64,000 nucleotides of DNA from sequence record OZ035728.1. One strand, written 5' to 3'. The translations under genes and the position numbers were made by a program. The stretch is from Phapecoctavirus 536P1. Under the pieces are notes generated by a model, which saw only the letters and a program-made list of their open reading frames with translations, was not told the origin of the DNA and did not search any database. Numbering within the stretch: the stretch's first letter is position 1; every line of letters begins with the position of its first letter. This document shows, one piece after another, positions 28,212 to 61,882 of the stretch.

Positions 28212-29186
28212 TTAAACAGCAGCTTCTTCTTTTTCAGGGAAGATAAAGCTTGCAATAACACCAAGAGCTAATGTGCCTAGAACAATCATCAGACTTACGT
28301 TAGGGGAAATATCATGCGGGAGGAATGACCACTTGGCATGAAGTGTTTCACCGAACGGGTGATACATAAGTTTAGCACCAACAAACACCAGAACCACAGC
28401 AACAGCTTTCTCTAAGTGAACCAGATATTTCACAGCTACACTTAACACAAAGAAAAGTGCACGTAAACCAAGAACAGCCATCAGCATTGCAGAATAAACT
28501 AGCAGAGGTTCTTGTGTCACACCAATAACAGCCGGAACTGAATCAAAAGAGAACACAATATCTGTAAGCTCAATAACAAACACACAAAGAAGAGCAGGAG
28601 TTGCATATTTAATACCATTCTTAATGGTAATGAACTTTTCACCATCCAGTGCGTTGTGCACAGGCAGAACTTTACCTACTAAACGAACAGCCCAATGTTT
28701 AGAGTAATCAATATCTTCTTCTTCGTCACCACCTTTGATAATAGCAACGGCAGACCAAGCTACAATCAGACCGAACAACACTTGGACCGACCAATGCAGG
28801 TTAAACAAAGCTGTCCCTGCTGCAACAAAAACACCTCGGAAGACAATGGCACCTGCAATACCCCAAAGTAAAATCTTATGTTGGAGATGTGTGCTCTTAA
28901 TTCCAAAGCTTGCAAAAATTGCCATGAACACCATTAGGTTATCTACAGAAAGACTCTTTTCCAACACATATCCACTTAGGAAAAGTGCGGCAAACTCTTT
29001 ACCATGCTCTACCCAAATGAATGCGTAATATCCTAAAGCTAAAGCAATCCAAAAAACAGACCAAAGCAAAGCAGATTTAATTCCAATTTCTTTATTCTCT
29101 TTATGACCAAAGAAATCGATACCAATAGACAATGCCAAAATACCAACTAAAACAACTACATCAATAATTGGGAAACCGAGTTGCAT
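28212..29186 (-). CDS. terC: TerC-family integral membrane protein
   Basis: 324 aa, multiple TM segments; duplicated TerC motifs VLEKSLSVDNLMVF and IELTDIVFSFDSVPAV. Confidence 0.8.
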   Translation of the reverse strand: MQLGFPIIDVVVLVGILALSIGIDFFGHKENKEIGIKSALLWSVFWIALALGYYAFIWVEHGKEFAALFLSGYVLEKSLSVDNLMVFMAIFASFGIKSTHLQHKILLWGIAGAIVFRGVFVAAGTALFNLHWSVQVLFGLIVAWSAVAIIKGGDEEEDIDYSKHWAVRLVGKVLPVHNALDGEKFITIKNGIKYATPALLCVFVIELTDIVFSFDSVPAVIGVTQEPLLVYSAMLMAVLGLRALFFVLSVAVKYLVHLEKAVAVVLVFVGAKLMYHPFGETLHAKWSFLPHDISPNVSLMIVLGTLALGVIASFIFPEKEEAAV

Positions 29187-29213
29187 TCTTTTCTCCTCTC
29201 TTTGCGGGGAACT

Positions 29214-29262
29214 ATTCCCCGCTTCATGTGATATATCTTACTCTTTTTAAGAACTATGTCAA
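29214..29262 (-). promoter_or_regulatory. promoter-hairpin cassette upstream of terC (same architecture as the 51-60 kb array)
   Basis: minus strand reads TTGACA-N16-TAAGAT, then GCGGGGAA-TAG-TTCCCCGC stem-loop, then AAAGAGAGGAG leader and terC ATG. Confidence 0.6.
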
Positions 29263-47866: not shown

Positions 47867-47890
47867 AAACCCGCTTCGGCGGGTTTTGTT
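47867..47890 (+). terminator. intrinsic terminator
   Basis: AAACCCGC-TTCG-GCGGGTTT hairpin followed by TGTT after ATPase gene. Confidence 0.65.
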
Positions 47891-50103: not shown

Positions 50104-50255
50104 TCCTATACAAACACTTGTCTTTTTCAGTTGGCATTGCTAGGATTCGATCTGGGTGGGTTCCTGAAGGTCTACCAATAAGATTAAAGGTTATCTCAAA
50201 TTCCCACTACCTGTTATCTCAAAAATCCCTCAAATTATTTAAACTTTTTAAGAAT

Positions 50256-50302
50256 TTACAAAAGTGAAAGTTGAAAACCAAAATTTAAAGTTTAGGAAAA
50301 TT
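50256..50302. repeat. 47-bp A-rich direct repeat, copy 1
   Basis: TTACAAAAGTGAAAGTTGAAAACCAAAATTTAAAGTTTAGGAAAATT; about 42/47 identical to copy 2. Confidence 0.6.
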
Positions 50303-50393
50303 ATCTTAAAATGTTAGATACAAAACAAAACTCAAAAGTCAAGGAAAATTTTAAAAATTTTGCGCGCCCACAGTATTTAAAGTTTTTTTGCTT

Positions 50394-50440
50394 TTACAAA
50401 AATGAAAGTACAAAAGCAAAATTTAAAGTTTACAAAAATT
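50394..50440. repeat. 47-bp A-rich direct repeat, copy 2
   Basis: TTACAAAAATGAAAGTACAAAAGCAAAATTTAAAGTTTACAAAAATT. Confidence 0.6.
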
Positions 50441-51195: not shown

Positions 51196-51224
51196 TTGAC
51201 GTTCCTCACCTGGTAGCGTAGTAT
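51196..51224 (+). promoter_or_regulatory. sigma70-like promoter (TTGACG-N17-TAGTAT) heading the cassette array
   Basis: hexamers about 135 nt upstream of ATG 51360. Confidence 0.45.
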
Positions 51225-51359
51225 TCATCTTGTCGAGGGGGGCGAGGCACAACGACAATAAACAACAGGAGGGCGCAATGTAGGACGGGCAAAGGTGAGG
51301 ATCTCCATAATCCACCGTCAACCAACAAAAAACATCATTCATCACCTGGAGTTAAAATC

Positions 51360-51557
51360 ATGGCAACATTGCACATTGTGGCGAAAGCTGGACAAATCAA
51401 CGTAATAGTAAACGGTTTTACTGAGTTCAGTCATCCCCAGGATGATCATGAAACGGTTTTATCTTTCATTGATTCCCTGTTAGAAATGGGAGTCATTACA
51501 GAAGACCAGCACGCTACAAAATGCAAGCGCGTTAATCAAATTGCAGGAATAGAATAA
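51360..51557 (+). CDS. hypothetical small protein
   Basis: 65 aa; first ORF of array. Confidence 0.55.
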   Translation: MATLHIVAKAGQINVIVNGFTEFSHPQDDHETVLSFIDSLLEMGVITEDQHATKCKRVNQIAGIE

Positions 51558-51563
51558 AAACTA

Positions 51564-51626
51564 TTGACAACAAACAACAACCTGATAAGATGTGTCACAT
51601 AGGGCGGCGGAATGGTCCAGCCGCTC
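51564..51626 (+). promoter_or_regulatory. promoter-hairpin cassette A
   Basis: TTGACA-N16-TGaTAAGAT then GGGCGGCGGAATGGTCCAGCCGCTC stem-loop starting about 3 nt after predicted +1. Confidence 0.6.
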
Positions 51627-51649
51627 ACAACAGAAGAGAGATTATAATC

Positions 51650-51922
51650 ATGGCATCATATAGCGCAACAATGATCGTAGCTGGCACCACTGGTAAACCT
51701 ATGAGCGGTGGCGGATCTTTCGCAAATATCAACATTGACGGGCGTTTATCCCTGGACGCAGCGATCACCGTGGCGCGGGAAACATTTAAGAAAGAATGTA
51801 AATTCAATAAACAAGATTATCTCGGTTTTGCTATTGAAAAAACCGCGCGCTTTGTTGATTATAAAAGCCCGAAAATGGTTGATACTACACTAAAAGCGCA
51901 AGATGTAGCGTTTTTGCTTTAA
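51650..51922 (+). CDS. hypothetical small protein
   Basis: 90 aa from ATG after purine-rich leader AGAAGAGAG. Confidence 0.6.
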   Translation: MASYSATMIVAGTTGKPMSGGGSFANINIDGRLSLDAAITVARETFKKECKFNKQDYLGFAIEKTARFVDYKSPKMVDTTLKAQDVAFLL

Positions 51923-51925
51923 GGC

Positions 51926-51980
51926 TTGACATTAACGAATAATTTGTTAATATGTTACATAAAGCGGGAATAGTTCCCGC
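51926..51980 (+). promoter_or_regulatory. promoter-hairpin cassette B
   Basis: TTGACA-N16-TAATAT then GCGGGAA-TAG-TTCCCGC. Confidence 0.6.
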
Positions 51981-51998
51981 TATTTGTAAGGTGGTAGA

Positions 51999-52256
51999 AT
52001 GTTTTACATCAAATTAAAAGGTCACGTGATCGCGTTCAAAGATAACGCTTTTTACAGATTAGCAAAATATGCGTTAATACATCCCCACTATGTTTATATA
52101 AGGGGGCGTGATGAAATAAATATCTTTGATCAAACAACATGCGAGAACATCGAGATCCGCAAGGTTGGCGTACGTGATTATCGTACATCTTTCTACCCTT
52201 GCAAGGATTCAGCAAGTCTTTTTAAAGTATGCCAATTGTTGAAAAAAGGTGGTTAA
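51999..52256 (+). CDS. hypothetical small protein
   Basis: 85 aa. Confidence 0.6.
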   Translation: MFYIKLKGHVIAFKDNAFYRLAKYALIHPHYVYIRGRDEINIFDQTTCENIEIRKVGVRDYRTSFYPCKDSASLFKVCQLLKKGG

Positions 52257-52257
52257 T

Positions 52258-52815
52258 ATGGGCCGCGAATATGTGATCCAGTCTTGGGTAAAACATGAAG
52301 CAGATGATCCGCGCATCATTCCCGATCATCTTATCGATGAATCCACGGGATATAGCGGTGAGCAAATAGGTAACAGATTAGCACGTAGTAACGGCAACGT
52401 AAAAGCGCGTTATGTGCGCCCTGGCTGGCTGGCAAATGGTAACGCTGATTTATCCAGTGCGGAAGATGCGAGCGACGGCGCGAAAGATAATCCTTTGTAC
52501 AAAATTGATCCGGCTTTTCGTGTCCTGGATGAATACCCCAGCAAGATAGCGGCGCTCGATCAGGCCCTGGAAAGTAAGCGCATCACCTGGACCGCTTACA
52601 ACATGGCAAAAAACGTACTTGATGGTAAATTGATTCAAGCTGAAAGGAAATTAGCCAAAATTGCAGCCATAGCCCAGGAGGAAGACGAGGAGACAACGGA
52701 AGAGGAAGAGTACGAAGAGATCCCGCCGTTGTTGTGTGTTGATGCTTTTCCTGATTATCAGCCGACAGAGGAAGAAAAAAGGATTGCACTAGAAAACTTT
52801 GAAAATAGTCTTTGA
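52258..52815 (+). CDS. hypothetical protein with acidic C-terminus
   Basis: 185 aa from ATG after SD AGGTGG. Confidence 0.6.
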   Translation: MGREYVIQSWVKHEADDPRIIPDHLIDESTGYSGEQIGNRLARSNGNVKARYVRPGWLANGNADLSSAEDASDGAKDNPLYKIDPAFRVLDEYPSKIAALDQALESKRITWTAYNMAKNVLDGKLIQAERKLAKIAAIAQEEDEETTEEEEYEEIPPLLCVDAFPDYQPTEEEKRIALENFENSL

Positions 52816-52869
52816 CATATCGCCGCCACTGGCATAATATTTACCACGTAGGGCGGCAATGGTGCCGCT
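52812..52869 (+). promoter_or_regulatory. promoter-hairpin cassette C
   Basis: TTGACA-N17-TAATAT then GGCGGCA-ATGG-TGCCGCT. Confidence 0.6.
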
Positions 52870-52897
52870 CATAGTGAAATTATGCAAGAGGTTTACA

Positions 52898-52993
52898 ATG
52901 ATTAATAAAGAAAATAGCTTGACGGTTGGAACGATTAACGCTATCATTTTCGCCGTTCCATTTTGGGTTGTAGTAGCGGCTATTATTTTCTAA
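52898..52993 (+). CDS. small hydrophobic peptide (31 aa)
   Basis: SD AGAGG; single predicted TM helix. Confidence 0.4.
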   Translation: MINKENSLTVGTINAIIFAVPFWVVVAAIIF

Positions 52994-53002
52994 AAAATAT
53001 TC

Positions 53003-53063
53003 TTGACAACGTTTTTTAATCTGATAAGATGTGTCACATAGGGCGGCGGAATACTTCCCCGCC
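53003..53063 (+). promoter_or_regulatory. promoter-hairpin cassette D
   Basis: TTGACA-N16-TGaTAAGAT then GGCGGCGGAATACTTCCCCGCC. Confidence 0.6.
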
Positions 53064-53084
53064 AAAACAAAAAAGGGTAACACA

Positions 53085-53447
53085 ATGAGCAAGCAAATCA
53101 ATACTATCATGTTTAATCTGGTATCTTTCCGCGATGATATGAAAAATTTACCACGTGAAACGGTTGATATTCATGTTTCAGCTTATCGCGCCCTTATTGA
53201 TATGTTACCGCTAAAACGTGATCAACATGCCGCTAATATGATGCTTAATGCTATGCTTAAAAAGATGATTCAAACGGATCTCACCCTGGCGTATGAGTAT
53301 CAAGGGCGCTTATATGCAACTTACAACAAGGCGGTACCTGGTCTGGGAAGTACCGAAGAGTTGCACGGCTTAAACCTGGATCAAAACACTTGGGATAGTA
53401 TGCGCCGCGTTATGATATGGGCCGAAAGCGGTAAAATTTACGAATAA
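53085..53447 (+). CDS. hypothetical protein
   Basis: 120 aa from ATG after leader AAAAAAGGG. Confidence 0.6.
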   Translation: MSKQINTIMFNLVSFRDDMKNLPRETVDIHVSAYRALIDMLPLKRDQHAANMMLNAMLKKMIQTDLTLAYEYQGRLYATYNKAVPGLGSTEELHGLNLDQNTWDSMRRVMIWAESGKIYE

Positions 53448-53452
53448 AAACG

Positions 53453-53512
53453 GTTGACACTGTTTAAACTTCTGGTATAGTTTACCACATAGGGCGGGAA
53501 GTGGTTTCCCGC
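53453..53512 (+). promoter_or_regulatory. promoter-hairpin cassette E
   Basis: TTGACA-N16-TGgTATAGT then GGCGGGAA-GTGG-TTTCCCGCC. Confidence 0.6.
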
Positions 53513-53535
53513 CAACAATGAAAAAGGTTATCATC

Positions 53536-53901
53536 ATGGCTATTAATATTAATGTTTCCGCTTATGCTACCCTGGCTAACACGGCTAAAATTGAATTATC
53601 CAGCATTGAGGCGGTGCATATTAGCGCCCGTCGCTGGTTTCAACGGTCCTACGGTAACACATATTTTTCTTTAATGGTTGACGTTGAGATCGGCGGTAAA
53701 CTGATCGAGGTGGTTAACGTTCCGTTTCAATATGGCTATGGTGATCATTTTGATACCGTCGCCCTGGAAGAGTTTAGCAAGGTTATCAACCTGGAAGGTA
53801 AAGAGTTTTCAAATTATGCCTACCTTTCCCGTTTTTGCCGTGACAATGGGATCACTGTATACAGTCATGCAAGCGATGTTAAACGTAAAAAAGATCTATA
53901 A
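53536..53901 (+). CDS. hypothetical protein
   Basis: 121 aa from ATG after AAAAAGG leader. Confidence 0.55.
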   Translation: MAININVSAYATLANTAKIELSSIEAVHISARRWFQRSYGNTYFSLMVDVEIGGKLIEVVNVPFQYGYGDHFDTVALEEFSKVINLEGKEFSNYAYLSRFCRDNGITVYSHASDVKRKKDL

Positions 53902-53907
53902 AAAGCA

Positions 53908-53969
53908 TTGACAGCACGAATAAAAAGAGTAAACTGTATTACATAGAGAGCGGGAATACTTCCCGCCTC
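53908..53969 (+). promoter_or_regulatory. promoter-hairpin cassette F
   Basis: TTGACA-N16-TAAACT then GCGGGAA-TAC-TTCCCGC. Confidence 0.55.
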
Positions 53970-53990
53970 ACTGAAAAAGAGATTAATATC

Positions 53991-54230
53991 ATGGCTAAAT
54001 CAAAAATGTTCTTAGGTCACAAAAATAAAACCCATTGGAATGTAAGCCTCTGGATTAATAACGATGAATCATTATATCGGTTGGCGAAAGAATTTATCGC
54101 CGCTAATACTAATCGTAATGATGCTGCGCGGGATATGATGCTTTTTCTGGAACAAACTGGACAAGATAAAACGCCAGACGGTTTCAAATATAGCACTACT
54201 GCGATCCGTGCCGCGATGGTTGGAATGTAA
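53991..54230 (+). CDS. hypothetical small protein
   Basis: 79 aa. Confidence 0.6.
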   Translation: MAKSKMFLGHKNKTHWNVSLWINNDESLYRLAKEFIAANTNRNDAARDMMLFLEQTGQDKTPDGFKYSTTAIRAAMVGM

Positions 54231-54239
54231 TAAAAACAG

Positions 54240-54299
54240 TTGACAACGTTTAAAATTAGTGTAAGATGTATCATATAGGGCGGGAAGTGGTTTCCCGCC
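54240..54299 (+). promoter_or_regulatory. promoter-hairpin cassette G
   Basis: TTGACA-N16-TGTAAGAT then GGCGGGAA-GTGG-TTTCCCGCC. Confidence 0.6.
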
Positions 54300-54320
54300 A
54301 AAACAGAGAGATTAAAGATT

Positions 54321-54548
54321 ATGGCTATCAATATTGTTCGCGTATCCGGCACCGTTGGCACTTCCCAGGTTATTGCAGTTGTAACAAACAAAAAGATTAA
54401 TGATGTATGTGAGATCTTGAATAAGTGGGCTGTTGCTAATTTTGGGGAATATGCAAGCGTCGAGTACATCGAATCCTACCAGGTGCCAACCATCAGCCTA
54501 ACCGATCTCAACGTTGATCGCCTGTTATGCCTGGATGAATTAATCTGA
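54321..54548 (+). CDS. hypothetical small protein
   Basis: 75 aa. Confidence 0.6.
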   Translation: MAINIVRVSGTVGTSQVIAVVTNKKINDVCEILNKWAVANFGEYASVEYIESYQVPTISLTDLNVDRLLCLDELI

Positions 54549-54557
54549 AAAAGATTG

Positions 54558-54620
54558 TTGACACGGGAAAGAAAAAGAGTAAACTGTATTACATCAAGGC
54601 GGCGGAATGGTCCACCGCCT
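54558..54620 (+). promoter_or_regulatory. promoter-hairpin cassette H
   Basis: TTGACA-N16-TAAACT then GGCGGCGGAATGGTCCACCGCC. Confidence 0.55.
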
Positions 54621-54643
54621 AACAAAGAGAAGAGGAAAACACC

Positions 54644-54811
54644 ATGATCACTTTCGCTACCCGTGAAGCCGCTCGCAATGTTGCCCGTAAAGTTAACGCC
54701 GCCAACCTGGGTGCTACGTTTAAAGCACCTGTAAAAGATGAATCAGGAAAATGGATCTTCCCTGGTCTGCGTCACGCTGATAAGCTAGGCACTTTAAGCC
54801 TTAAAAAATAA
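54644..54811 (+). CDS. hypothetical small protein (55 aa), N-terminus MITFA shared with next gene
   Basis: SD-like AGAGAAGAGG leader. Confidence 0.45.
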   Translation: MITFATREAARNVARKVNAANLGATFKAPVKDESGKWIFPGLRHADKLGTLSLKK

Positions 54812-54814
54812 TCG

Positions 54815-54854
54815 TTGACTTTTCGTTATAGCGCCCATCATAAGGCGCTATAGA
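54815..54854 (+). promoter_or_regulatory. atypical cassette I (TTGACT then ATAGCGCC-loop-GGCGCTAT palindrome)
   Basis: -35-like hexamer but hairpin sits where -10 is expected; different stem sequence. Confidence 0.35.
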
Positions 54855-54885
54855 GAAGAGAAACCACTACTAACAAGGAAACATC

Positions 54886-55107
54886 ATGATCACTTTCGCT
54901 ATTGTCGCCGTTGTTGCTGGTCAGGTTTACATAAACGATACATTCACCACAGAAGACAAGGCCGCAGGAGACATAACCGCCGTTTACAATGAGTGCAAGG
55001 CAGTAGAAAGGATGTTAGCGCCTTGTATGCTAATGAGTGAACGCCAGGACGGGATAACAGTATTTACTAACATTGAAACAGGGTACCAAATGGTAGTAAC
55101 AAAATAA
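54886..55107 (+). CDS. hypothetical small protein
   Basis: 73 aa. Confidence 0.55.
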   Translation: MITFAIVAVVAGQVYINDTFTTEDKAAGDITAVYNECKAVERMLAPCMLMSERQDGITVFTNIETGYQMVVTK

Positions 55108-55110
55108 AGC

Positions 55111-55167
55111 TTGACACGGATTTAATTTTCAGTAAACTGTTACACGTAGGGCGGGAATAGTTCCCGC
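55111..55167 (+). promoter_or_regulatory. promoter-hairpin cassette J
   Basis: TTGACA-N16-TAAACT then GCGGGAA-TAG-TTCCCGC. Confidence 0.6.
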
Positions 55168-55185
55168 TAAAAAGAGAGAAAGACC

Positions 55186-55539
55186 ATGAAAGCACAAAAT
55201 ACAATTAAAGAGTACATCCTTGCCGCTATCGATTTTAATGATTATGGTATTACAACCGAAAAAGAGAAGATCGCGGAATTGATGCGCCGTTTTAATTCCG
55301 AGTACTGGTACCCTGATAACCAATCACGTTTTAATTATAGTATTGTTAAAGCACTTGCATCATGGTTACAAGGTTTGCCATCAGATATCAATATCGCTTT
55401 CGAATATTGGGAAATTGATCGCTTGTTAACATCCTGGGGATACATTAAAGAGAATAGCAGCGATGATAAAATCCAACGAGAAAGGGAAAATTATTGGCTT
55501 TATATTGCAGGAGTGATCCTTGCTTGCTCTTATGAATGA
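55186..55539 (+). CDS. hypothetical protein
   Basis: 117 aa. Confidence 0.6.
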   Translation: MKAQNTIKEYILAAIDFNDYGITTEKEKIAELMRRFNSEYWYPDNQSRFNYSIVKALASWLQGLPSDINIAFEYWEIDRLLTSWGYIKENSSDDKIQRERENYWLYIAGVILACSYE

Positions 55540-55545
55540 TAAACC

Positions 55546-55600
55546 TTGACAATTTTACAAAACAGTTTAAATTAACAATATAGCGGCAATGGTGCCGCTC
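55546..55600 (+). promoter_or_regulatory. promoter-hairpin cassette K
   Basis: TTGACA-N16-TAAATT then GCGGCA-ATGG-TGCCGC. Confidence 0.5.
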
Positions 55601-55618
55601 ATATGAAGAGGAAACAAA

Positions 55619-55765
55619 ATGAAGACATCTAATCGCGCAGAAAAAATTCAATCTTCCAAGATCCGCAAGGCCTGGAACGAGGAAGTGATCCGCAAAGGCG
55701 ACAAGCGCAATAAAACAAAGCGCGGGAAGAGTGACAAATATAATTGGATGGATTTAGAGGATTAA
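55619..55765 (+). CDS. small basic protein (48 aa)
   Basis: Lys/Arg-rich; followed directly by terminator. Confidence 0.45.
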   Translation: MKTSNRAEKIQSSKIRKAWNEEVIRKGDKRNKTKRGKSDKYNWMDLED

Positions 55766-55772
55766 CATAACA

Positions 55773-55799
55773 AGGGCGCACCAAGCGCCCTTTCTTTTT
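55773..55799 (+). terminator. intrinsic terminator (GGGCGC-ACCAA-GCGCCC + T tract), copy 1
   Basis: identical hairpin and T tract recur at 60792. Confidence 0.75.
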
Positions 55800-55820
55800 A
55801 TATGTAGAGGATAAACAAAG

Positions 55821-56006
55821 ATGACTTTAAGCGAGCTTAAAACAGCCTACAACGCAACATTAAAAATAGCCGTGCGTTACCGTGATGCGTATGGTTTTAT
55901 CGCGCAGGGCGTGATCCTGGGCTTTTCTGACGATGGTTTGATCTATGTTGATGCACATCATAACAAGGTAAAACCTGAAAACGTCATTAGCATAAAATAT
56001 CTTTAA
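55821..56006 (+). CDS. hypothetical small protein
   Basis: 61 aa; SD GAGGA. Confidence 0.55.
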   Translation: MTLSELKTAYNATLKIAVRYRDAYGFIAQGVILGFSDDGLIYVDAHHNKVKPENVISIKYL

Positions 56007-56012
56007 AAGTGG

Positions 56013-56072
56013 TTGACACCATAACCGGACCTGTTAAACTGTATTACATCAGGCGGGGAATAGTTCCCCACC
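56013..56072 (+). promoter_or_regulatory. promoter-hairpin cassette L
   Basis: TTGACA-N16-TAAACT then GGCGGGGAA-TAG-TTCCCCACC. Confidence 0.55.
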
Positions 56073-56091
56073 ATACAAAAAGGTAAATATT

Positions 56092-56298
56092 ATGATCACC
56101 GCAAAACAAGAGAAAATCATTATCGACGTTGCAGCCGTTGCCGCTATTGCTATTATTGGATCTTATTATGATACCCGTTTCCCGTCGGCTATGCATGAGG
56201 TCGCCGCCGTTGCATCAGTTGGCGTACTGTTTTACGTTGGTAAACGCTATTTATCACCAATGATTAACAAGCTGACACCGTGGAAAAATAAAGGTTGA
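56092..56298 (+). CDS. small membrane protein
   Basis: 68 aa with hydrophobic segment. Confidence 0.55.
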   Translation: MITAKQEKIIIDVAAVAAIAIIGSYYDTRFPSAMHEVAAVASVGVLFYVGKRYLSPMINKLTPWKNKG

Positions 56299-56353
56299 TC
56301 CTGTTTTATATTGTGTTATAGTTATCGTGTAGGGCGGCAATGGTGCCGCGCCC
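56295..56353 (+). promoter_or_regulatory. promoter-hairpin cassette M
   Basis: TTGATC-N16-TATAGT then GGCGGCA-ATGG-TGCCGCG. Confidence 0.5.
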
Positions 56354-56369
56354 CTTTGAGGATGCAATC

Positions 56370-56654
56370 ATGAGTAAAGCTAACACCGTGCTAATGTTTT
56401 CCCTGATTAATGATCCCGCTTACTTGTCCAACATGACGCAGGAGGGTAACACATTAACGGCAACATTCACCAATAAGCTTGACCGAGTGATCATCATCTC
56501 ACTGAAAACAGTTAGTAAAGGCTTTTACTCGTTAGCTTATCATTGGATCACCGATACCGATGAGACAAGCCAGGACTATAGCGCCCCTTTCCCTGAATCA
56601 ATGGCACGGGAGATCATCGCCGCCGTTGTAAATGATGGTTTGTTTACTGAATAA
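56370..56654 (+). CDS. hypothetical protein
   Basis: 94 aa from ATG after SD GAGGA. Confidence 0.55.
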   Translation: MSKANTVLMFSLINDPAYLSNMTQEGNTLTATFTNKLDRVIIISLKTVSKGFYSLAYHWITDTDETSQDYSAPFPESMAREIIAAVVNDGLFTE

Positions 56655-56672
56655 AATAATTTAGAAAAAGGC

Positions 56673-56729
56673 TTGCAATCATTTTGAGATAGTGTATATT
56701 TAATTCATAGGGCGGCGGGAATAGTTCCC
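56673..56729 (+). promoter_or_regulatory. promoter-hairpin cassette N
   Basis: TTGCAA-N16-TATATT then GGCGGCGGGAA-TAG-TTCCC. Confidence 0.5.
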
Positions 56730-56752
56730 AAAGCAAACGAGAGGATTACACG

Positions 56753-56872
56753 ATGAGCAAGTACACAGTAGAATACACGGTAGAAAATCCGGCAGTATCC
56801 GAAGGTAAAAAGATGACATTTGCCATCAATATAATCGCTTTCGTTGTCACTATCTTATCAATCATCTTATAA
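56753..56872 (+). CDS. small hydrophobic peptide (39 aa)
   Basis: SD GAGAGGA; C-terminal TM helix. Confidence 0.45.
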   Translation: MSKYTVEYTVENPAVSEGKKMTFAINIIAFVVTILSIIL

Positions 56873-56882
56873 GGTGCACACC

Positions 56883-57044
56883 ATGAAAACAACAGATATT
56901 ATCAAAGAGATCGCCCTTGCCGCTGGCGTTGAGATCGAGGAAGTGATCGCGCTCAATCTTACAGAAAACGATCTGCGCAACTATGAAGCGGAAAGCGTGA
57001 AAGCAAGCGGCGCGGTCCTGGTATATGATCCGGCTAACAAGTAA
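56883..57044 (+). CDS. hypothetical small protein (53 aa)
   Basis: ATG 10 nt after stop of preceding peptide gene. Confidence 0.45.
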   Translation: MKTTDIIKEIALAAGVEIEEVIALNLTENDLRNYEAESVKASGAVLVYDPANK

Positions 57045-57053
57045 GGGGATAAC

Positions 57054-57203
57054 ATGAATCCGAAAGATATGCAAGCATGGAAAGGGTACGACGATCTAAG
57101 CGCCTTGCGCAATAAGTCAAGCCGTAACTTTAGACGGTTGGAAGCAAAGAAAAAGAAAAATAGTTTGACAAGTCCGCCTAGTCTGATAATATATATCTTG
57201 TAG
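57054..57203 (+). CDS. hypothetical small basic protein (49 aa)
   Basis: SD AAGGGGA; 3' end overlaps cassette O promoter. Confidence 0.35.
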   Translation: MNPKDMQAWKGYDDLSALRNKSSRNFRRLEAKKKKNSLTSPPSLIIYIL

Positions 57204-57222
57204 GGCGGCAATGGTGCCGCTC
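57165..57222 (+). promoter_or_regulatory. promoter-hairpin cassette O
   Basis: TTGACA-N16-TGaTAATAT then GGCGGCA-ATGG-TGCCGCT. Confidence 0.6.
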
Positions 57223-57241
57223 ACAAGAAGAGAGAAAAATC

Positions 57242-57526
57242 ATGAAAATCACAAAAAGCCTAACTAATTATGCAGCACGTCGCGGATTATGTTTAACCGT
57301 TGAAAACTTAGGGAAAGAAGACTTTTTGTGTTTTTGGGAGCTTGAAAATGATTGCGAGTGGATGTTTTCTTATTCTATCTGCGAAGATCAAAACGGTTGT
57401 TTGTTAACCTGGCGCGGTAATATCTGTTTACCGGAAGAAATTAAAGAAGAGTTACCAGGTACGATCATGACAGAGAGACAGCTTAAGGAAGTGATCAATT
57501 TTGTAGGGCAAAACATTAAAAAATAA
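57242..57526 (+). CDS. hypothetical Cys-containing protein
   Basis: 94 aa. Confidence 0.6.
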   Translation: MKITKSLTNYAARRGLCLTVENLGKEDFLCFWELENDCEWMFSYSICEDQNGCLLTWRGNICLPEEIKEELPGTIMTERQLKEVINFVGQNIKK

Positions 57527-57527
57527 T

Positions 57528-57590
57528 TTGACAGTAGGCAAACAACGTAGTAAAGTTTATTACATAGAGCGGCGGAATGGTCCACCGCTC
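57528..57590 (+). promoter_or_regulatory. promoter-hairpin cassette P
   Basis: TTGACA-N17-TAAAGT then GCGGCGGAATGGTCCACCGC. Confidence 0.55.
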
Positions 57591-57611
57591 ACAACAGAAG
57601 AGAAACAAATC

Positions 57612-57782
57612 ATGATCCCGACTATGTTTTATGTATCGCGCAAAGGTCACAATATTTTTTGGTCTGAAGATTTAAATGAAGCTATGACGTTTGCCCGTGA
57701 TCGTGTTGCTATCGGTGGCGTTAACATCACCGTAACCGATGAAAATGGCATTGAATACTATAACGGCGACGATGAAGAATAA
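57612..57782 (+). CDS. hypothetical small protein (56 aa)
   Basis: ATG after leader AGAAGAGAAACAAATC. Confidence 0.5.
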   Translation: MIPTMFYVSRKGHNIFWSEDLNEAMTFARDRVAIGGVNITVTDENGIEYYNGDDEE

Positions 57783-57788
57783 TTAATG

Positions 57789-57813
57789 AGGCGGGGGGAG
57801 TATTCCCCGCCGT
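57789..57813 (+). promoter_or_regulatory. leader stem-loop Q without recognisable promoter
   Basis: GGCGGGGGGAG-TAT-TCCCCGCC directly upstream of SD of gene 57831. Confidence 0.4.
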
Positions 57814-57830
57814 CAATAAAGAGGTAAATC

Positions 57831-58100
57831 ATGAAAATATCATTGGACGTTGCAATCAAGGCCATCGAATCCGGTTACATCCTGGTAAAAGATGATAAGG
57901 CTAAAATAGTGCATCATGTTAACAAGGAAACAGGCGAAAGCATGATCACATATAAAGCCGCCTACTTTCTCCAATCAGTAGCAGATCCGCGCGTACAACG
58001 CCAGGTTACGGCGGCTATTGCTAAAAAATTATGTGCTTTACAGGGTGCAAGTTTTAACGAGATTGCCCCGTGTTTTGAGTGGTCAAGCTTGAAAAAATAA
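57831..58100 (+). CDS. hypothetical protein
   Basis: 89 aa; SD AGAGG. Confidence 0.6.
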   Translation: MKISLDVAIKAIESGYILVKDDKAKIVHHVNKETGESMITYKAAYFLQSVADPRVQRQVTAAIAKKLCALQGASFNEIAPCFEWSSLKK

Positions 58101-58101
58101 T

Positions 58102-58163
58102 TTGACAACAATTATAAATCGGGTAGAATGTATTTCGTAGGGCGGGGCAATAAGGCAACGCCC
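58102..58163 (+). promoter_or_regulatory. promoter-hairpin cassette R
   Basis: TTGACA-N16-TAGAAT then GGGCG...CGCCC stem with long loop. Confidence 0.5.
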
Positions 58164-58181
58164 ATTAATGAGGGTAGAATC

Positions 58182-58286
58182 ATGTTAGAGAAAATTTTCA
58201 CGGTCGTAGTAGTGGGCCTGGCGTTATCGGTTGGAGTAGTTGCAACTATGGCTAATATGATCCTATCTTCCCACGGTATCGGCTAA
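58182..58286 (+). CDS. small hydrophobic peptide (34 aa)
   Basis: SD GAGGG; single TM helix. Confidence 0.4.
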   Translation: MLEKIFTVVVVGLALSVGVVATMANMILSSHGIG

Positions 58287-58300
58287 AAGAGAGACACAAC

Positions 58301-58687
58301 ATGAAAACAGAAATCATTATTGAAATCATCAACGGCTATAAAGAAGCCTTTATTTTTGCTGAATCAGCAAGGGATCATGAAGGTAATTTTATTGATAACT
58401 TAGACGATTATGATTTTTCTCCTAGCGCGGACGAACGGATCGCCCAGGATGTAACAGCCTTTATTAATGCTAATCTTGCCGCTATCTCTGAGGCAATGAG
58501 CGACGGCGCAACAGCCATCCAGATCGGGAGTGATTTACATTTTACCCGTAACGGTCACGGCATAGGCTTTTGGAATCGCCCTGAAATATACACTACTAAC
58601 ACGGCGAACCGCCTAACAAATGCCGCTAAGTTTATGCCTATTGTGTCGGCTTACATTGGTGAAGATAATTTGATTTATATTGAATAA
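58301..58687 (+). CDS. hypothetical acidic protein
   Basis: 128 aa; leader AAAGAGAGACACAAC. Confidence 0.6.
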   Translation: MKTEIIIEIINGYKEAFIFAESARDHEGNFIDNLDDYDFSPSADERIAQDVTAFINANLAAISEAMSDGATAIQIGSDLHFTRNGHGIGFWNRPEIYTTNTANRLTNAAKFMPIVSAYIGEDNLIYIE

Positions 58688-58693
58688 AAAGTA

Positions 58694-58751
58694 TTGACAC
58701 AGATCGCCAGTGTGCTAATATTTACCACGTAGGGCGGCAATGGTGCCGCTC
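58694..58751 (+). promoter_or_regulatory. promoter-hairpin cassette S
   Basis: TTGACA-N16-TGcTAATAT then GGCGGCA-ATGG-TGCCGCT. Confidence 0.6.
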
Positions 58752-58770
58752 ACTGTAAAAGGTAAACATT

Positions 58771-58962
58771 ATGAAAACTATCACCTATCTGGAATCTAAT
58801 AACATGTTTTTCGCCCCCGTTGATGAAATCATCGAAGCATTAAACAACGAGGAAGGGATCAAAGGTTTATCTTATAGCCAACTTTTAGGAATGGTTGCAG
58901 CAAATGAGGAGCTTGCTTACTATATTGAAAATTTTGATGAAGCTGTAATCTTTACAAAATAA
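58771..58962 (+). CDS. hypothetical small acidic protein
   Basis: 63 aa. Confidence 0.55.
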   Translation: MKTITYLESNNMFFAPVDEIIEALNNEEGIKGLSYSQLLGMVAANEELAYYIENFDEAVIFTK

Positions 58963-58964
58963 TC

Positions 58965-59021
58965 CTTGATCTAATCTCTCAGATAACTTATATTTAATGC
59001 GTAGGGCGGCAATGGTGCCGC
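58965..59021 (+). promoter_or_regulatory. promoter-hairpin cassette T
   Basis: TTGATC-N16-TATATT then GGCGGCA-ATGG-TGCCGCC. Confidence 0.5.
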
Positions 59022-59040
59022 CGATAATGAGGAAAACAAA

Positions 59041-59340
59041 ATGGAAACTATCGCTATTGTTACCGTAGAAAAACTGGTTGTTGGTGATGTATTCGCGTTA
59101 ATGGTGCCTAACAGCAGCAAGCTGGGCGCTTATGAAGTAATGGATCATAAAAATGAATCATTTGGCGACGGTTGCACAATGGCGGTAAAATCTTTAAAGG
59201 ATGGAATCATCCGCCAGGCTAACTGGCACAAAGGGAATCAAGTCGGTTTAATATCAGCTAATTTCTTGCCAGAAGAGCAAACATTAGATCAACTATCAGG
59301 CGGTAAGACGTTAGCCGAACTACTGGAAACAGCGATCTAA
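59041..59340 (+). CDS. hypothetical protein
   Basis: 99 aa. Confidence 0.6.
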   Translation: METIAIVTVEKLVVGDVFALMVPNSSKLGAYEVMDHKNESFGDGCTMAVKSLKDGIIRQANWHKGNQVGLISANFLPEEQTLDQLSGGKTLAELLETAI

Positions 59341-59347
59341 TCGACAA

Positions 59348-59364
59348 GGGGCGGCAACGCCCCC
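59348..59364 (+). promoter_or_regulatory. leader stem-loop U (GGGGCG-GCAA-CGCCCC, GNRA-type loop)
   Basis: hairpin 30 nt upstream of ATG 59394; no promoter hexamers seen. Confidence 0.4.
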
Positions 59365-59393
59365 ATTAAACGCAATAGGAAGAGGATAGACAC

Positions 59394-59678
59394 ATGAAAA
59401 AGACGATCGCAGTAGTTGCCCTGGTTGTTGGTATTAACGCGCCTGTAATGGCGAAAGAGTTGCCAGAATCCATCACGTTAACCGATATTAACGCAGTGAA
59501 CCGGATCGGTGTTAATTATCGCCTATGCCTTGCCGCTAAAACTTTCCAGGACGGCACAACAGAGTACTACGGATTCGAGGGTGTTCGGTGCGGTGAGCTT
59601 GCACGCGACCTTAAGGAAGATCCAGACCTTGAGGCCATACCGATGACCGTAAACGGTAAAGCCCAGGTAAACCGCTAA
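59394..59678 (+). CDS. secreted/periplasmic protein
   Basis: signal peptide MKKTIAVVALVVGINAPVMA; SD AGGAAGAGGA. Confidence 0.6.
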   Translation: MKKTIAVVALVVGINAPVMAKELPESITLTDINAVNRIGVNYRLCLAAKTFQDGTTEYYGFEGVRCGELARDLKEDPDLEAIPMTVNGKAQVNR

Positions 59679-59680
59679 CC

Positions 59681-59815
59681 ATGAGAAAGGTAATCATCAC
59701 AATGGGGATCGTAGTAGCAACGCTGGCGCTTATTCCCTTCCTGGTTGAATATGTGCTGATTAATGTTGTCCTAGTAGTCAGTGACCTATTGGAAACGGTT
59801 GGCACCTGGTTTTAA
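59681..59815 (+). CDS. small membrane peptide (44 aa)
   Basis: ATG 2 nt after upstream stop; two hydrophobic stretches. Confidence 0.4.
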   Translation: MRKVIITMGIVVATLALIPFLVEYVLINVVLVVSDLLETVGTWF

Positions 59816-59823
59816 AAATAAAT

Positions 59824-59853
59824 AAACAGGACTTGTTTTTGTCCTGTTTTTTG
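59824..59853 (+). terminator. intrinsic terminator
   Basis: ACAGGAC-loop-GTCCTGT hairpin followed by TTTTTTG. Confidence 0.65.
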
Positions 59854-59991
59854 TTATACTTATTAAACGGGCGGCACTTGGGAGCAGGTGAAGATAATCA
59901 CCGGAAGATCCCGCTATATATCGATAGCTAATACCTATCAAACAACAAAACATCAAAGAGATAAACTATTAAATCTTTACAATCCTACATA

Positions 59992-60020
59992 TTGACCGAT
60001 AAATCACAACAGTTTAATAT
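59992..60020 (+). promoter_or_regulatory. sigma70-like promoter (TTGACC-N17-TAATAT), no leader hairpin
   Basis: about 50 nt upstream of ATG 60069. Confidence 0.45.
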
Positions 60021-60068
60021 TGTTTTCAGAGGTTAAAATATTCCCCAAACGAAAACAGGAAAAAGAAA

Positions 60069-60305
60069 ATGAAAGAAGTTATGATCCTCAAAAAATCACC
60101 TATTTTACGTGGTGGCTTTATCGCTTACTCTGATGATCTGTTAATTGCAACAGTTGCAAAAATACTAAAATCAGAAGATGACAGTAAAAACGGCGTTTAT
60201 CGTATCTGTTTCACCCGTGGAAAATTACAAGGTAAGATCGCTTATGCCTTTGACTTACAAGATGTAAACGATAAAATATGCGCTGTTATTGATTATGCAA
60301 AATAG
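60069..60305 (+). CDS. hypothetical small protein
   Basis: 78 aa; A-rich SD. Confidence 0.55.
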   Translation: MKEVMILKKSPILRGGFIAYSDDLLIATVAKILKSEDDSKNGVYRICFTRGKLQGKIAYAFDLQDVNDKICAVIDYAK

Positions 60306-60317
60306 TTAATTTTCTTA

Positions 60318-60358
60318 TTGACACCGGATCACGCTTGCATTATTATTTATCACGTAGG
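60318..60358 (+). promoter_or_regulatory. cassette V: promoter with degenerate leader (CACGTAGGGC retained, stem lost)
   Basis: TTGACA-N17-TATTAT then CACGTAGGGCAAATCATTTT. Confidence 0.45.
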
Positions 60359-60392
60359 GCAAATCATTTTAAACGGTAAACGAGGAATCACC

Positions 60393-60776
60393 ATGAGCAA
60401 TATCATCAACCTGGCAGCGACTGTAAACGGTAAAGACTTTAACGGCGCTGTAGACCGTGATCCTATGTGGTGCTTATCAGTGTTTAAAGGCGACCTGGTT
60501 GAAGTTAGAACAACCGAAGGGTATAGCGATGATTATAAATGTGAGATCCATTTGCATAACTGGTACACGGGTAAAACTTATGCGCTGAATCACGCGTTTA
60601 TCGGAAAAATCGAATATTGTGAGATGATTGACGAAGAAACGGGGCAAGATTTTAGCGAAAACGTTTATATTCGTTCAGAAACATTAGCCGAACGTTTGAT
60701 CGAGAAAATGAAAGCAAAAAATAAAATTAATTTATCTCATTGGATTGATATAACAAACGATCCAGCTTATCAATAA
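60393..60776 (+). CDS. hypothetical protein
   Basis: 127 aa from ATG after SD GAGGAA. Confidence 0.6.
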   Translation: MSNIINLAATVNGKDFNGAVDRDPMWCLSVFKGDLVEVRTTEGYSDDYKCEIHLHNWYTGKTYALNHAFIGKIEYCEMIDEETGQDFSENVYIRSETLAERLIEKMKAKNKINLSHWIDITNDPAYQ

Positions 60777-60791
60777 ATAACATTTCACACC

Positions 60792-60818
60792 AGGGCGCAC
60801 CAAGCGCCCTTTCTTTTT
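60792..60818 (+). terminator. intrinsic terminator (GGGCGC-ACCAA-GCGCCC + T tract), copy 2; closes cassette array
   Basis: identical to terminator at 55773. Confidence 0.75.
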
Positions 60819-60959
60819 GCCCGAACAATGTTGATAGCTTTCGCCTATGAAAAACCGACACAGAACAAAATTGAATAAATAGCGGTATCAAGCTAATCAA
60901 CCATTAAACGAATAACCATACCTCCCAGGGTAACAGGCTGTTAGAGAGCCATTTATAGC

Positions 60960-61320
60960 GGTTAAAATCGATCAACAACCAACAACAAACCATCAAAAAC
61001 ACCTTTTTACCTCCTTTCTAGTGCAATGATAACCATTATCATCTACCCATGATTATCTATGCAATATAAGCGCATAACTATAATGTTGATAATAGTTCGC
61101 AACAACTAACCAACAAACAACATAAAACAATAAGCAAACTAATCATAATCAAAGGAATAATAGCAAGATGATTGATAACGACAAACAATCAAACCATGAT
61201 AAATACTAAGCAAAATAACGATAACACGACAAAACAACCAACTAACGAACAATAACAAACGAAACCATTAAAATAATAACTATTAGCAAAATAGTGCATG
61301 AATGAAATCATTACAAAACG
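60960..61320. repeat. A/C-rich, G- and T-poor low-complexity tract without ORFs
   Basis: runs such as CAACAACCAACAACAAACCATCAAAAACACC and AACAACATAAAACAATAAGCAAACTAATCATAATC; strong strand asymmetry. Confidence 0.6.
61026..61043. promoter_or_regulatory. Fur-box-like site
   Basis: TGATAACCATTATCATC resembles 3' two-thirds of Fur consensus. Confidence 0.3.
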
Positions 61321-61882
61321 AATCATTCACAGAGTCATCATTAGCACGCTACGCCGGACACGTAGCGAGCTAATAATAAGCCAACTACACCCCAACAATC
61401 ATAACCATCGGTGACGGTTATTTCTTGTTACTGCGTAGCTTGCAATAATTGCAAGCGTAATGACGCTTACACTTATTGCGCTGGCTTATTATTAGCATTA
61501 TATGTAATTACCAAGATCATAACATTAGCGCAATAACAATAATCATTGTGGTAATTACAAGAGTTATCACTATCGTTCAGTGTGATCATCATTAGCAGGA
61601 TGAATAATTGCACGTAGCAACATGAGCGAATAGCGACAGGTTGCATAGTGTGCACATAGTGTATAAACATACAAGAAAATAAAGGCTAATCTTTTGGGGG
61701 CGAATACTATCGCGTAGCGATATGTTGAGCACTAAGAGAAGAGATAAACCTTAATCATGGGGGCGTAAATATCCGCAGGATTGCCAACGGCGATCCGGTA
61801 GGATGTTGAGCACCTTCTCTTAAACGTAAATAAAATCAGAAAATTCTTGATTTATTTTAGTTTTTATGTTAATAAACGTTTA

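Follow-up and report, generated by a model that had tools for sequence, protein, structure and literature searches.

Repeated promoter–hairpin units precede small genes in a variable array of Phapecoctavirus 536P1

Introduction

Why would a phage place a GC-rich hairpin between the promoter and the start codon of one small gene after another? The question is raised by Phapecoctavirus 536P1 (sequence record OZ035728.1), of which we analyzed a stretch of 64,000 nt, hereafter “the window”. From 51.2 to 60.8 kb, this window holds 30 small plus-strand genes encoding 31–185 amino acids (aa), 18 of which stand behind a canonical unit. In order, the unit comprises TTGACA, a spacer of 16–17 nt, TAnnnT, an initial transcribed region of ~10 nt (GTATCACRTAG), a GC hairpin, an A-rich leader, a Shine–Dalgarno (SD) sequence, and ATG. 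With moderate confidence, we interpret the array as a hyperplastic early region made of self-contained cassettes of the promoter-early stem-loop (PeSL) type, in which the hairpin would stabilize and insulate the mRNA while the repeats would drive gene shuffling.

PeSL cassettes are known from the T4-like phages RB49/phi1, T4/PST, and KVP40/nt-1 (Arbiol et al. 2010, PMC2839356; Comeau et al. 2014, PMC4122927). Phapecoctavirus belongs to the Stephanstirmvirinae, with genomes of ~150 kb, and a literature search returned no description of the unit in phAPEC8, phi92, or rV5-type phages. Relatives are named below where possible, and otherwise carry the labels L001 (MZ726793), L002 (ECML-183-2), L003 (SKA64), L004 (Mt1B1_P17), L006 (OR584014), and L009 (FV3), with L005, L007, and L008 as further relatives.

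Anatomy and conservation of the unit

We re-annotated the 30 genes, looked for the best sigma70 match within the 110 nt located 5′ of each, and predicted how the leaders fold. Among the 18 canonical units (start codons in Table 1), 15 have an exact TTGACA as the predicted −35 and the other three TTGATC or TTGCAA, the spacer is 16 nt long in 14 cases and 17 nt long in four, and the −10 reads TAAGAT, TAATAT, TAAACT, TATAGT, or similar, with TG directly 5′ in eight cases. The first paired base of the hairpin follows the −10 by 10–12 nt, and the ATG follows the hairpin by 13–23 nt across a leader rich in A or purines. The composite pattern TTGACN-N20-32-TAGRGCGG was observed 10 times against 0.02 expected, while the core TAGGGCGG occurs on the plus strand only and between 51.6 and 59.0 kb only. 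Nearly all of the best promoter matches from an independent consensus scan (10–11 of 12 positions) likewise fall at unit sites, and an A-rich tract, one of the features by which PeSL promoters are defined, is found in the sequence 5′ of the −35 across units. Overall, the repeat of promoter, hairpin, and small open reading frame described in the initial annotation is real, and its promoter is, by hexamers and spacing, of the sigma70 type.

Different parts of the unit are conserved to different degrees. Among paralogous units, the spacer between −35 and −10 is almost free (0.2–0.7 bit per position), and the first ~11 nt past the −10 (GTATCACRTAG) together with the hairpin carry 0.7–1.7 bit. Between orthologues in four more distant relatives, identity is highest in the −35 (98%), followed by codon positions 1–2 (90–94%), the −10 (88%), hairpin plus leader (85%), the initial transcribed region (82%), the spacer (79%), and codon position 3 (76%).

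Incomplete units are also found, including a hairpin that overlaps the −10 (54815), hairpins by themselves (57787–57815 and 59348–59363), a promoter by itself (59992), and a promoter followed by CACGTAGGGC without a hairpin (60318). The orthologue of the 60318 promoter is followed by a hairpin in relatives (L004, position 11606; L003, position 11862), and orthologues of the first promoter of the array, at 51196, have a canonical type-A hairpin in L001, L002, and L003, the window allele being a replacement of ~113 nt at that place. Of 16 promoter-like sites with an exact TTGACA in the rest of the 64 kb, only one bears such a hairpin (minus strand, 29262), which marks the hairpin as a trait of the cassette class and not of phage promoters at large. 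The gene behind this isolated unit encodes an integral-membrane protein (MQLGFPIIDVVVLVGILALS...) that is TerC-like by eye only.

The unit recurs in every relative examined, i.e., in phAPEC8-like and phi92-like phages and in the rV5-like FV3 (Vequintavirinae). Across 131 units from nine sources, 123 place the first paired base of the hairpin 10–12 nt past the −10. The small-gene array of FV3 has the same architecture built from unrelated stems (GGGGCAAACGTCTTGCCCC, GGGGAGACACTCCCC, GGGCCAAAAGGCCC); judging from these sequences, it is a stable hairpin at a set place that is conserved, not the hairpin’s sequence. FV3 further contains four near-identical intergenic units (1466–1543, 2085–2172, 2419–2494, and 5804–5888) in which a 10-bp hairpin (GATGGCCTTG-ACTC-CAGGGCCATC) encloses a −35 TTGACT and is followed by TAAACT. 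By their layout, these four are of the RB49-type PeSL subclass, standing alongside units with a hairpin in the 5′ untranslated region (UTR) in one array.

Selection on hairpin pairing

Compared with dinucleotide shuffles, 16 of the 18 canonical leaders fold at z-scores of −2.7 to −5.3, the two others (ATG 56370 and 56753) being partly degenerate, and the folding free energy (dG) of canonical hairpins ranges from −11 to −17 kcal/mol. In first alignments of whole leaders (MAFFT), the 3′ arms did not line up and RNAalifold recovered three pairs only, and these alignments were replaced by a covariance model seeded from 10 type-A hairpins of equal length, which we searched in the window and seven related loci. 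This search, which the initial annotation had suggested as a check, gave 78 plus-strand matches and a single minus-strand match at E < 0.005. Within the window, matches are confined to the array and to the plus strand, and the reverse strand of matched sites scores ~30 bits lower.

In an alignment of 44 distinct sequences, 95.6% of the cells are paired compared to 91.3% in shuffles (0 of 500 reached the observed value), and pairing drops to 34–62% when partners are slid. Four core pairs, GCGG/CCGC, are invariant in all 44 sequences, so the variation resides in the upper stem, the loop, and two outer pairs. Pair changes comprise C-G to G-C exchanges in eight sequences, G-C to A-U exchanges in two, and one pair that cycles between G·U, G-C, and A-U. 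The initial annotation had described stems that differ between cassettes while pairing is preserved; compensatory variation of this kind does exist, as double changes at two of the eight modelled pairs (in eight and two sequences), but it is narrower than claimed, given the four invariant pairs of the core.

We then joined near-identical variants in a minimum spanning tree and classified the resulting 19 substitutions: 10 keep pairing, two break it, and seven affect unpaired positions, against a neutral expectation of 21, 60, and 19%, respectively (p = 5e-5), i.e., a keep-to-break ratio of 10:2 where 26:74 would be expected. All 10 pairing-preserving changes proceed via G·U on the plus strand, and both breaking changes are C·A (10:2, p = 0.019). 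Preservation solely through sense-strand G·U points to an RNA in sense orientation rather than to a symmetric DNA structure, and we conclude from these sequence comparisons that the hairpin is a selected structure, acting most probably as sense-strand RNA. Of the two forms between which the initial annotation did not choose, selected RNA or cruciform DNA, the first is backed by these changes and the second, being symmetric, is not.

Outside the core, hairpins are diverse. Loops include ATGG/AAUGG, TAG, TAC, GTGG, GCAA/GTAA, ACAAG, and AATAAG, and the distance from the GCGG to the CCGC half-site varies from 8 to 13 nt. In SKA64 (L003), the hairpin at ~5046–5073, GGGCGGCACTATTGCCGCCC, is an apex-inverted form of the common GGGCGGCAATAGTGCCGCTC, with the loop and two closing pairs reverse-complemented, which suggests an inversion inside the palindrome.

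Termination, factor binding, and processing

A hairpin behind a promoter can be read in several ways, and the reading found in databases is that of a terminator. In the MZ726793 record (L001), hairpins of this array are called rho-independent terminators by WebGeSTer and TransTermHP and annotated as such ~10 nt past promoters; the accompanying paper merely counts them. Under this explanation, the hairpins would be terminators or attenuators that damp upstream transcription, so that each gene would be driven mainly by its own promoter. Like intrinsic terminators, they are GC-rich, stable stems of 6–11 pairs, and in some FV3 units and window unit 54815 the hairpin lies inside the promoter, where it could act only on upstream transcripts or on DNA. 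In addition, an isolated PeSL stem-loop of RB49 cut downstream lacZ as much as rrnB T1 did (PMC2839356), which makes some attenuation possible and speaks against the interpretation we prefer. Unlike intrinsic terminators, however, the hairpins stand after a promoter and lack a U tract, the 8-nt tails averaging 1.2 T and 4.6 A, and none of them passes a terminator scan that does pick up the three canonical terminators of the same region. The hairpins of 18 units are placed past the predicted start site of their own unit, where a terminator would end the very transcript that carries it. Finally, conserved genes with a good SD sequence are found behind promoter-less hairpins, where only read-through can reach them: the gene at 57831, that at 59394, and an additional gene of ECML-183-2 (L002) that is flanked by two GNRA-loop hairpins and has no promoter of its own. 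We thus consider a termination or attenuation role unlikely, and the annotation of these hairpins as terminators is very probably wrong.

A further possibility is that the hairpin and the conserved YAYRTAGGGCGG form a tag on all early transcripts for a phage or host factor that would control them jointly, be it through antitermination, as a shut-off nuclease, or by repressing translation. The element occurs with a single gene class, AAURGU is common to many loops, and within Stephanstirmvirinae the 5′ arm and the bases preceding it are conserved in sequence beyond structure, although this last pattern can also be explained by concerted evolution via recombination at units. The parts that a factor would be expected to read are otherwise variable: loops (AAUGG, UAG, UAC, GCAA, ACAAG) and upper stems vary freely, one apex is inverted, and in FV3 an identical architecture is built from stems and loops of unrelated sequence, which argues against a sequence-specific binding factor. 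By reading the sequences, we saw no conserved boxA-like element past the hairpin, where the 3′ flanks differ (CACAACAG, AAAACA, AACAAT, TAAAAAG), and the variable loops and flanks set the units apart from nut and put antitermination sites. An Rfam scan of 44–64 kb at permissive thresholds matched no family, and Pfam and PHROGs searches returned no candidate RNA-binding protein among the 30 array products. A recognition element for an RNA-binding or antitermination factor, which the initial annotation had offered as its alternative, is hence disfavored, and we find it improbable.

Two more specific candidates were rejected. A boxA- or nut-like reading of the ...GCTCACAACAG flank fails on two counts: unit types differ in this flank, and GCTC belongs to the stem. 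CsrA sites with GGA in the loop were dismissed by inspection, GGA being located in stems and not in loops. The Rfam scan also gave a sub-threshold match to istR on the plus strand at 47814–47890 (25.3 bits against a gathering threshold of 45, E = 0.21), most likely by chance.

Early mRNAs of T7 are processed at intercistronic hairpins, and the hairpins studied here are likewise intercistronic and located in the early region of a virulent coliphage. They could then be RNase III sites at which a long early transcript is cut into monocistronic mRNAs. Yet natural RNase III sites extend over roughly two helical turns, well beyond the 6–11 pairs of these stems, and with a promoter of its own for almost every gene, processing would not be needed. 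This makes RNase III cleavage very improbable.

Units at gene-exchange junctions

Each of the relatives examined has its own set of genes in the array. Chains of blastn matches, built between the window and each of seven relatives, yielded 61 junctions corresponding to roughly 28 distinct events. Missed by the initial annotation, the location of units at these junctions is the strongest signal of the comparison. Units cover 22% of the region and contain 75 of the 122 junction ends (61%). At 24 of the junctions, a single unit of one genome matches each of the two units that enclose the extra gene in the other, with overlaps of 8–64 nt. The promoter and initial transcribed region at 54572–54603, for instance, are duplicated around an extra gene of ~270 nt in all seven relatives, and the hairpin at 59348–59363 is duplicated around an extra gene of ~250–270 nt in five (L002–L006). 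The gene at 58771–58962 sits in the window between two type-A units (58694 and 58966) and is absent from L004 and L005, which retain one chimeric unit at this locus; in Mt1B1_P17 (L004), the crossover falls within the hairpin. One deletion spans the interval between two −35 regions (59996/60308), and some insertions at unit-free gaps bring their own unit, e.g., after 57043 in SKA64. With crossovers located anywhere along the shared stretch, the junctions are in keeping with homologous recombination between repeats rather than with a site-specific event.

The position of some crossovers also bears on the idea that the inverted repeat acts as DNA, either as an operator for a dimeric repressor past the start site or as a cruciform or hairpin recombination site that mobilizes the cassettes. 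Some junctions are exactly in the hairpin (59348–59363 and the chimeric unit of L004), one apex inversion was seen, and in RB49 crossovers were mapped in the loop and minicircles detected (PMC2839356); a location at about +5 to +30 would, moreover, be typical of operators. Other crossovers fall in the promoter part (54572–54603) or at the −35 (59996/60308), as in ordinary homologous recombination, and the 8–13 nt separating the GCGG and CCGC half-sites are incompatible with a rigid dimer. Furthermore, pairing is kept on the sense strand only (10:2), where a duplex palindrome or cruciform would be symmetric. We regard a DNA-level function as quite improbable, and we see as an equally long shot a structure-directed, integron-like cassette system, in which the stem-loop in single-stranded DNA or a cruciform would be the recombination site and minicircle excision and re-insertion would make the array an actively maintained gene-capture platform instead of a passive outcome of homologous recombination.

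A model for expression and exchange

The interpretation we favor, that of PeSL-type cassettes with an mRNA-stabilizing hairpin, each joining a strong host sigma70 promoter and a stem-loop to one small accessory gene, can be laid out as follows. Host RNA polymerase would start ~6–8 nt past the −10, at the conserved CAC-R; by the known preferences of the E. coli enzyme, the conserved pyrimidine–purine steps 5/6 and 7/8 nt past the −10 are the expected starts. The primary transcript would thus carry 2–5 unpaired nt, a stable GC hairpin, an unstructured A/CA-rich leader, the SD sequence, and the ATG. At this place, the hairpin would hinder RppH and 5′-end-dependent attack by RNase E and would block RNase E scanning, without terminating transcription efficiently. 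In transcripts reading through from upstream promoters, the then intercistronic hairpin would stop 3′ exonucleases and insulate each ribosome-binding site. Lastly, 25–60 nt of promoter, initial region, and hairpin are near-identical between many units, and homologous recombination over this length could insert, delete, and swap “unit plus gene” modules both between and within genomes.

This model retains part of the 5′-terminal hairpin proposed in the initial annotation: the hairpin sits where a protective stem-loop would sit, but a purely 5′-terminal role is incomplete, as hairpins also stand between genes without a promoter. Another long shot, independent of the integron-like system above, is that the 5′ hairpin labels early mRNAs of the phage as “self” and spares them from a burst of host mRNA decay that the phage would induce. 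A separate lead on mRNA decay was dropped. The Srd protein of T4 stimulates RNase E. A Srd-like protein is reported in the rV5 paper, and a Srd-driven need for 5′ protection was considered, but a tblastn search of T4 Srd against the window gave nothing meaningful (best E = 1.2); in the phage collection, the matches listed for T4 Srd were mostly T4-like and included no Phapecoctavirus or Justusliebigvirus.

Several observations weigh against this model. With regard to expression, the remaining TTGACA sites outside the array lead, where a gene start is recognizable, directly into an SD sequence and ATG, so that strong promoters also occur without a hairpin. The distance from hairpin to 5′ end (3–4 nt in the initial annotation, 2–5 nt here) is a prediction from promoter geometry, and the work of Emory, Bouvet, and Belasco from 1992 is said to place a tail of 2–5 nt at the upper edge of the protective length. 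A literature search returned no transcript start mapping for phAPEC8, phi92, or rV5-type phages. With regard to selection on structure, strict covariation rests on few independent events, the units being related by duplication or conversion so that counts are not independent, and the asymmetry in folding energy is weak, with 23 hairpins favoring the plus strand and 10 the minus strand (p = 0.13). With regard to exchange, junctions are expected between genes anyhow, and some are located at short unit-free intergenic gaps (57043/57045 and 58286/58296).

Comparison with known systems

The closest parallel is the PeSL cassette, which the initial annotation did not mention. Both systems combine a near-consensus sigma70 promoter and its A/T-rich upstream tract with an adjacent stable stem-loop, an SD sequence, and an ATG, and both are densely packed where small orphan early genes make up hyperplastic regions. 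In both, close relatives differ by insertions, deletions, and replacements whose junctions lie at units, some units are reduced to degraded “half” forms, and stems contain G·T pairs; the hairpin overlapping the −10 in window unit 54815 also resembles the PeSL of RB49. In T4-like phages, PeSL minicircles form by recombination between flanking units (PMC2839356, PMC4122927). The differences concern lineage, geometry, and function: the units described here belong to Stephanstirmvirinae and Vequintavirinae and PeSLs to Straboviridae; here the stem-loop is essentially fixed just past the predicted start site, in the unit’s own 5′ UTR (123 of 131), whereas RB49/phi1 have five positional subclasses, mostly inside the promoter; an initial transcribed motif, GTATCACRTAG, is conserved here; and our sequence evidence opposes the terminator role that was proposed there with the support of one reporter construct.

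A second parallel is offered by stabilizing leaders. The T7 gene 10 leader carries a 5′-terminal stabilizing stem-loop. Base-paired 5′ ends slow decay that depends on RppH and RNase E, as exemplified by the ompA and papA stem-loops (PMC3997798). The array units share with these three leaders a stable hairpin a few nucleotides from the (here predicted) 5′ end, followed by an unstructured leader and ribosome-binding site, and the effect of those hairpins is independent of their sequence, in line with the free variation seen here. Those leaders are, however, single elements with an experimental effect on half-life, while the present hairpins occur in ~20 copies within a recombining module, some of them internal and without a promoter, and would stabilize mRNA by analogy.

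The cassettes are also reminiscent of the morons of lambdoid phages, which are insertions composed of promoter, gene, and terminator. Both are autonomous single-gene expression modules between genes that vary among relatives. Morons are nonetheless isolated, flanked by a true terminator, and devoid of a common repeat, whereas a promoter–hairpin repeat organizes the tandem array of 536P1.

Until now, descriptions of PeSL-type cassettes have been limited to T4-like phages, and their presence in the phAPEC8/phi92 and rV5 groups suggests convergence or a wide spread, and points to a general design for fast-evolving banks of early accessory genes in large virulent phages. Such regions are the usual hunting ground for anti-defense and host-takeover genes. 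With a fixed 5′-UTR hairpin and sense-strand selection, the present units provide a cleaner natural test bed than the T4-like cases, one in which an RNA role can be separated from a DNA role. There is also a consequence for annotation, as GenBank records of therapeutic-candidate phages list dozens of these hairpins as terminators 10 nt past promoters. The units could moreover be reused in synthetic biology as compact, strong, and insulated expression parts. Taken together, the finding is of use for correcting annotations and as a clean model, and is not a new principle.

Features along the array

Table 1 Units, hairpins, and terminators of the array, and the isolated unit outside it (window positions; dG in kcal/mol and z as defined in the text).
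Position	Strand	Feature	Values and remarks
51196..51359	+	First promoter, TTGACG-17-TAGTAT, with long atypical leader before gene 51360-51557	
51564..51649	+	Canonical unit, TTGACA-16-(TG)TAAGAT, hairpin 51602-51626, ATG 51650	dG −16.6, z −4.8
51926..51998	+	Canonical unit, hairpin 51963-51981 (AGCGGGAA-TAG-TTCCCGCT), ATG 51999	z −4.3
52812..52897	+	Canonical unit, type-A hairpin 52851-52870 (GGGCGGCA-ATGG-TGCCGCTC), ATG 52898 (31-aa transmembrane (TM) peptide)	z −3.6; 46.6 bits
53003..53084	+	Canonical unit, hairpin 53042-53063, ATG 53085	z −3.1
53454..53535	+	Canonical unit, hairpin 53493-53513, ATG 53536; indel junction in L002, L004, L006, L007, L008	z −4.0
53908..53990	+	Canonical unit, hairpin 53946-53969, ATG 53991 (DUF7249 protein)	z −4.7
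54240..54320	+	Canonical unit, hairpin 54279-54299, ATG 54321	z −4.0
54558..54643	+	Canonical unit, hairpin 54597-54620, ATG 54644	z −4.6
54815..54885	+	Variant unit, TTGACT, hairpin 54828-54851 (ATAGCGCC-CATCATAA-GGCGCTAT) overlapping −10, ATG 54886	dG −23; junction in L004, L005, L007, L008
55111..55185	+	Canonical unit, hairpin 55150-55168, ATG 55186	z −3.5
55546..55618	+	Canonical unit, hairpin 55582-55599, ATG 55619	z −2.7
55772..55800	+	True intrinsic terminator within the array, hairpin + TTTCTTTTT	terminator scan
56013..56091	+	Canonical unit, hairpin 56052-56072, ATG 56092	z −4.4
56295..56369	+	Canonical unit, weaker −35 TTGATC, partly degenerate hairpin 56332-56352, ATG 56370	z −1.5
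56673..56752	+	Canonical unit, −35 TTGCAA, lower stem lost, upper stem 56717-56729 retained, ATG 56753 (39-aa TM peptide)	z −1.0
57165..57241	+	Canonical unit, extended hairpin 57199-57225, ATG 57242	dG −21.2, z −4.1
57528..57611	+	Canonical unit, hairpin 57567-57590, ATG 57612	z −5.3
57783..57830	+	Hairpin-only unit (57787-57815), no promoter, before gene 57831-58100 (gene absent from L002)	z −3.6
58102..58181	+	Canonical unit, two-tier hairpin 58140-58163, ATG 58182 (34-aa TM peptide)	z −4.0
58694..58770	+	Canonical unit, type-A hairpin 58732-58751, ATG 58771	z −3.3
58966..59040	+	Canonical unit, −35 TTGATC, hairpin 59005-59022, ATG 59041	z −3.0
59341..59393	+	Hairpin-only unit (59348-59363, GGGGCG-GCAA-CGCCCC), no promoter, before gene 59394	z −3.3
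59824..59855	+	True intrinsic terminator, bidirectional per scan	terminator scan
59992..60068	+	Promoter-only unit, TTGACC-17-TAATAT, before gene 60069; deletion/replacement junction in L002, L003, L004, L006	
60318..60392	+	Degraded unit, TTGACA-17-TATTAT + CACGTAGGGC, no hairpin, before Gp30.8-like gene 60393-60776	junction at +26 in L007
60792..60818	+	Intrinsic terminator closing the array	terminator scan
29176..29262	−	Isolated canonical unit outside the array, TTGACA-16-TAAGAT, ATATCACATGAA, hairpin GCGGGGAA-TAG-TTCCCCGC, before membrane-protein gene	

Gene products and genomic setting

The array products include five TM-like peptides (31, 34, 39, 44, and 68 aa) and one signal-peptide-like protein, encoded at 59394, which agrees with the initial description of 31–185-aa products with single-TM peptides and secreted proteins among them. 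No product could be assigned a function. Most fall into PHROGs families of unknown function, with one labelled “membrane protein”, four match no PHROGs family, and a Pfam search recognized only Phage_30_8 and DUF7249.

The array extends from a divergent promoter region near 51.1–51.2 kb to the intrinsic terminator at 60792–60818. It is 94–97% identical to the matching part of many Phapecoctavirus genomes, including ECML-183-2, KKP 3954, Mt1B1_P17, and SKA64, and 248 phage records match the 9.6-kb region. In phi92, which belongs to the sister genus, the homologous block (genes 225–248) stops ~1.1 kb before the right direct terminal repeat, and the array thus adjoins the physical genome end. By analogy with phi92, whose right repeat lies ~1.1 kb past the Gp30.8-like gene, a genome end or terminal repeat should be located near 61.5–62 kb in 536P1, in which case the window would span the ends.

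Both non-coding stretches flanking the array have features of their own. Directly after the closing terminator, positions 60820–61400 form an AC-rich stretch free of open reading frames, with runs of the CAACAA/CCAACA type. On the 5′ side, the stretch at 50231–50440, poor in open reading frames, holds a 72-nt direct repeat (two copies, 82% identical) and a 29-nt repeat (three copies); these repeats are A/T-rich and contain promoter-like TTTACA...CAAAAT matches, and repeat regions are annotated at the equivalent position in the record of phage alia. Palindromic 19-mers (AATGATAATCATTCTCATT) that resemble the Fur box of E. coli, whose consensus is GATAATGATAATCATTATC, cluster in both flanks, at 50484, 50513, and 50542 (29-nt spacing) and at 61025, 61883, and 62062, i.e., six sites (nine strand matches with ≤3 mismatches) compared to 0.07 expected. 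They might respond to iron or Fur as control sites, act as a sink for Fur close to the genome end, or be bound by a phage protein.

Finally, some near-identical Phapecoctavirus genomes are filed as Pseudomonas, Campylobacter, and Acinetobacter phages (L006, OR584014; H3, MG065650; H27, OP562383), odd host labels that probably reflect contamination or host mislabelling.

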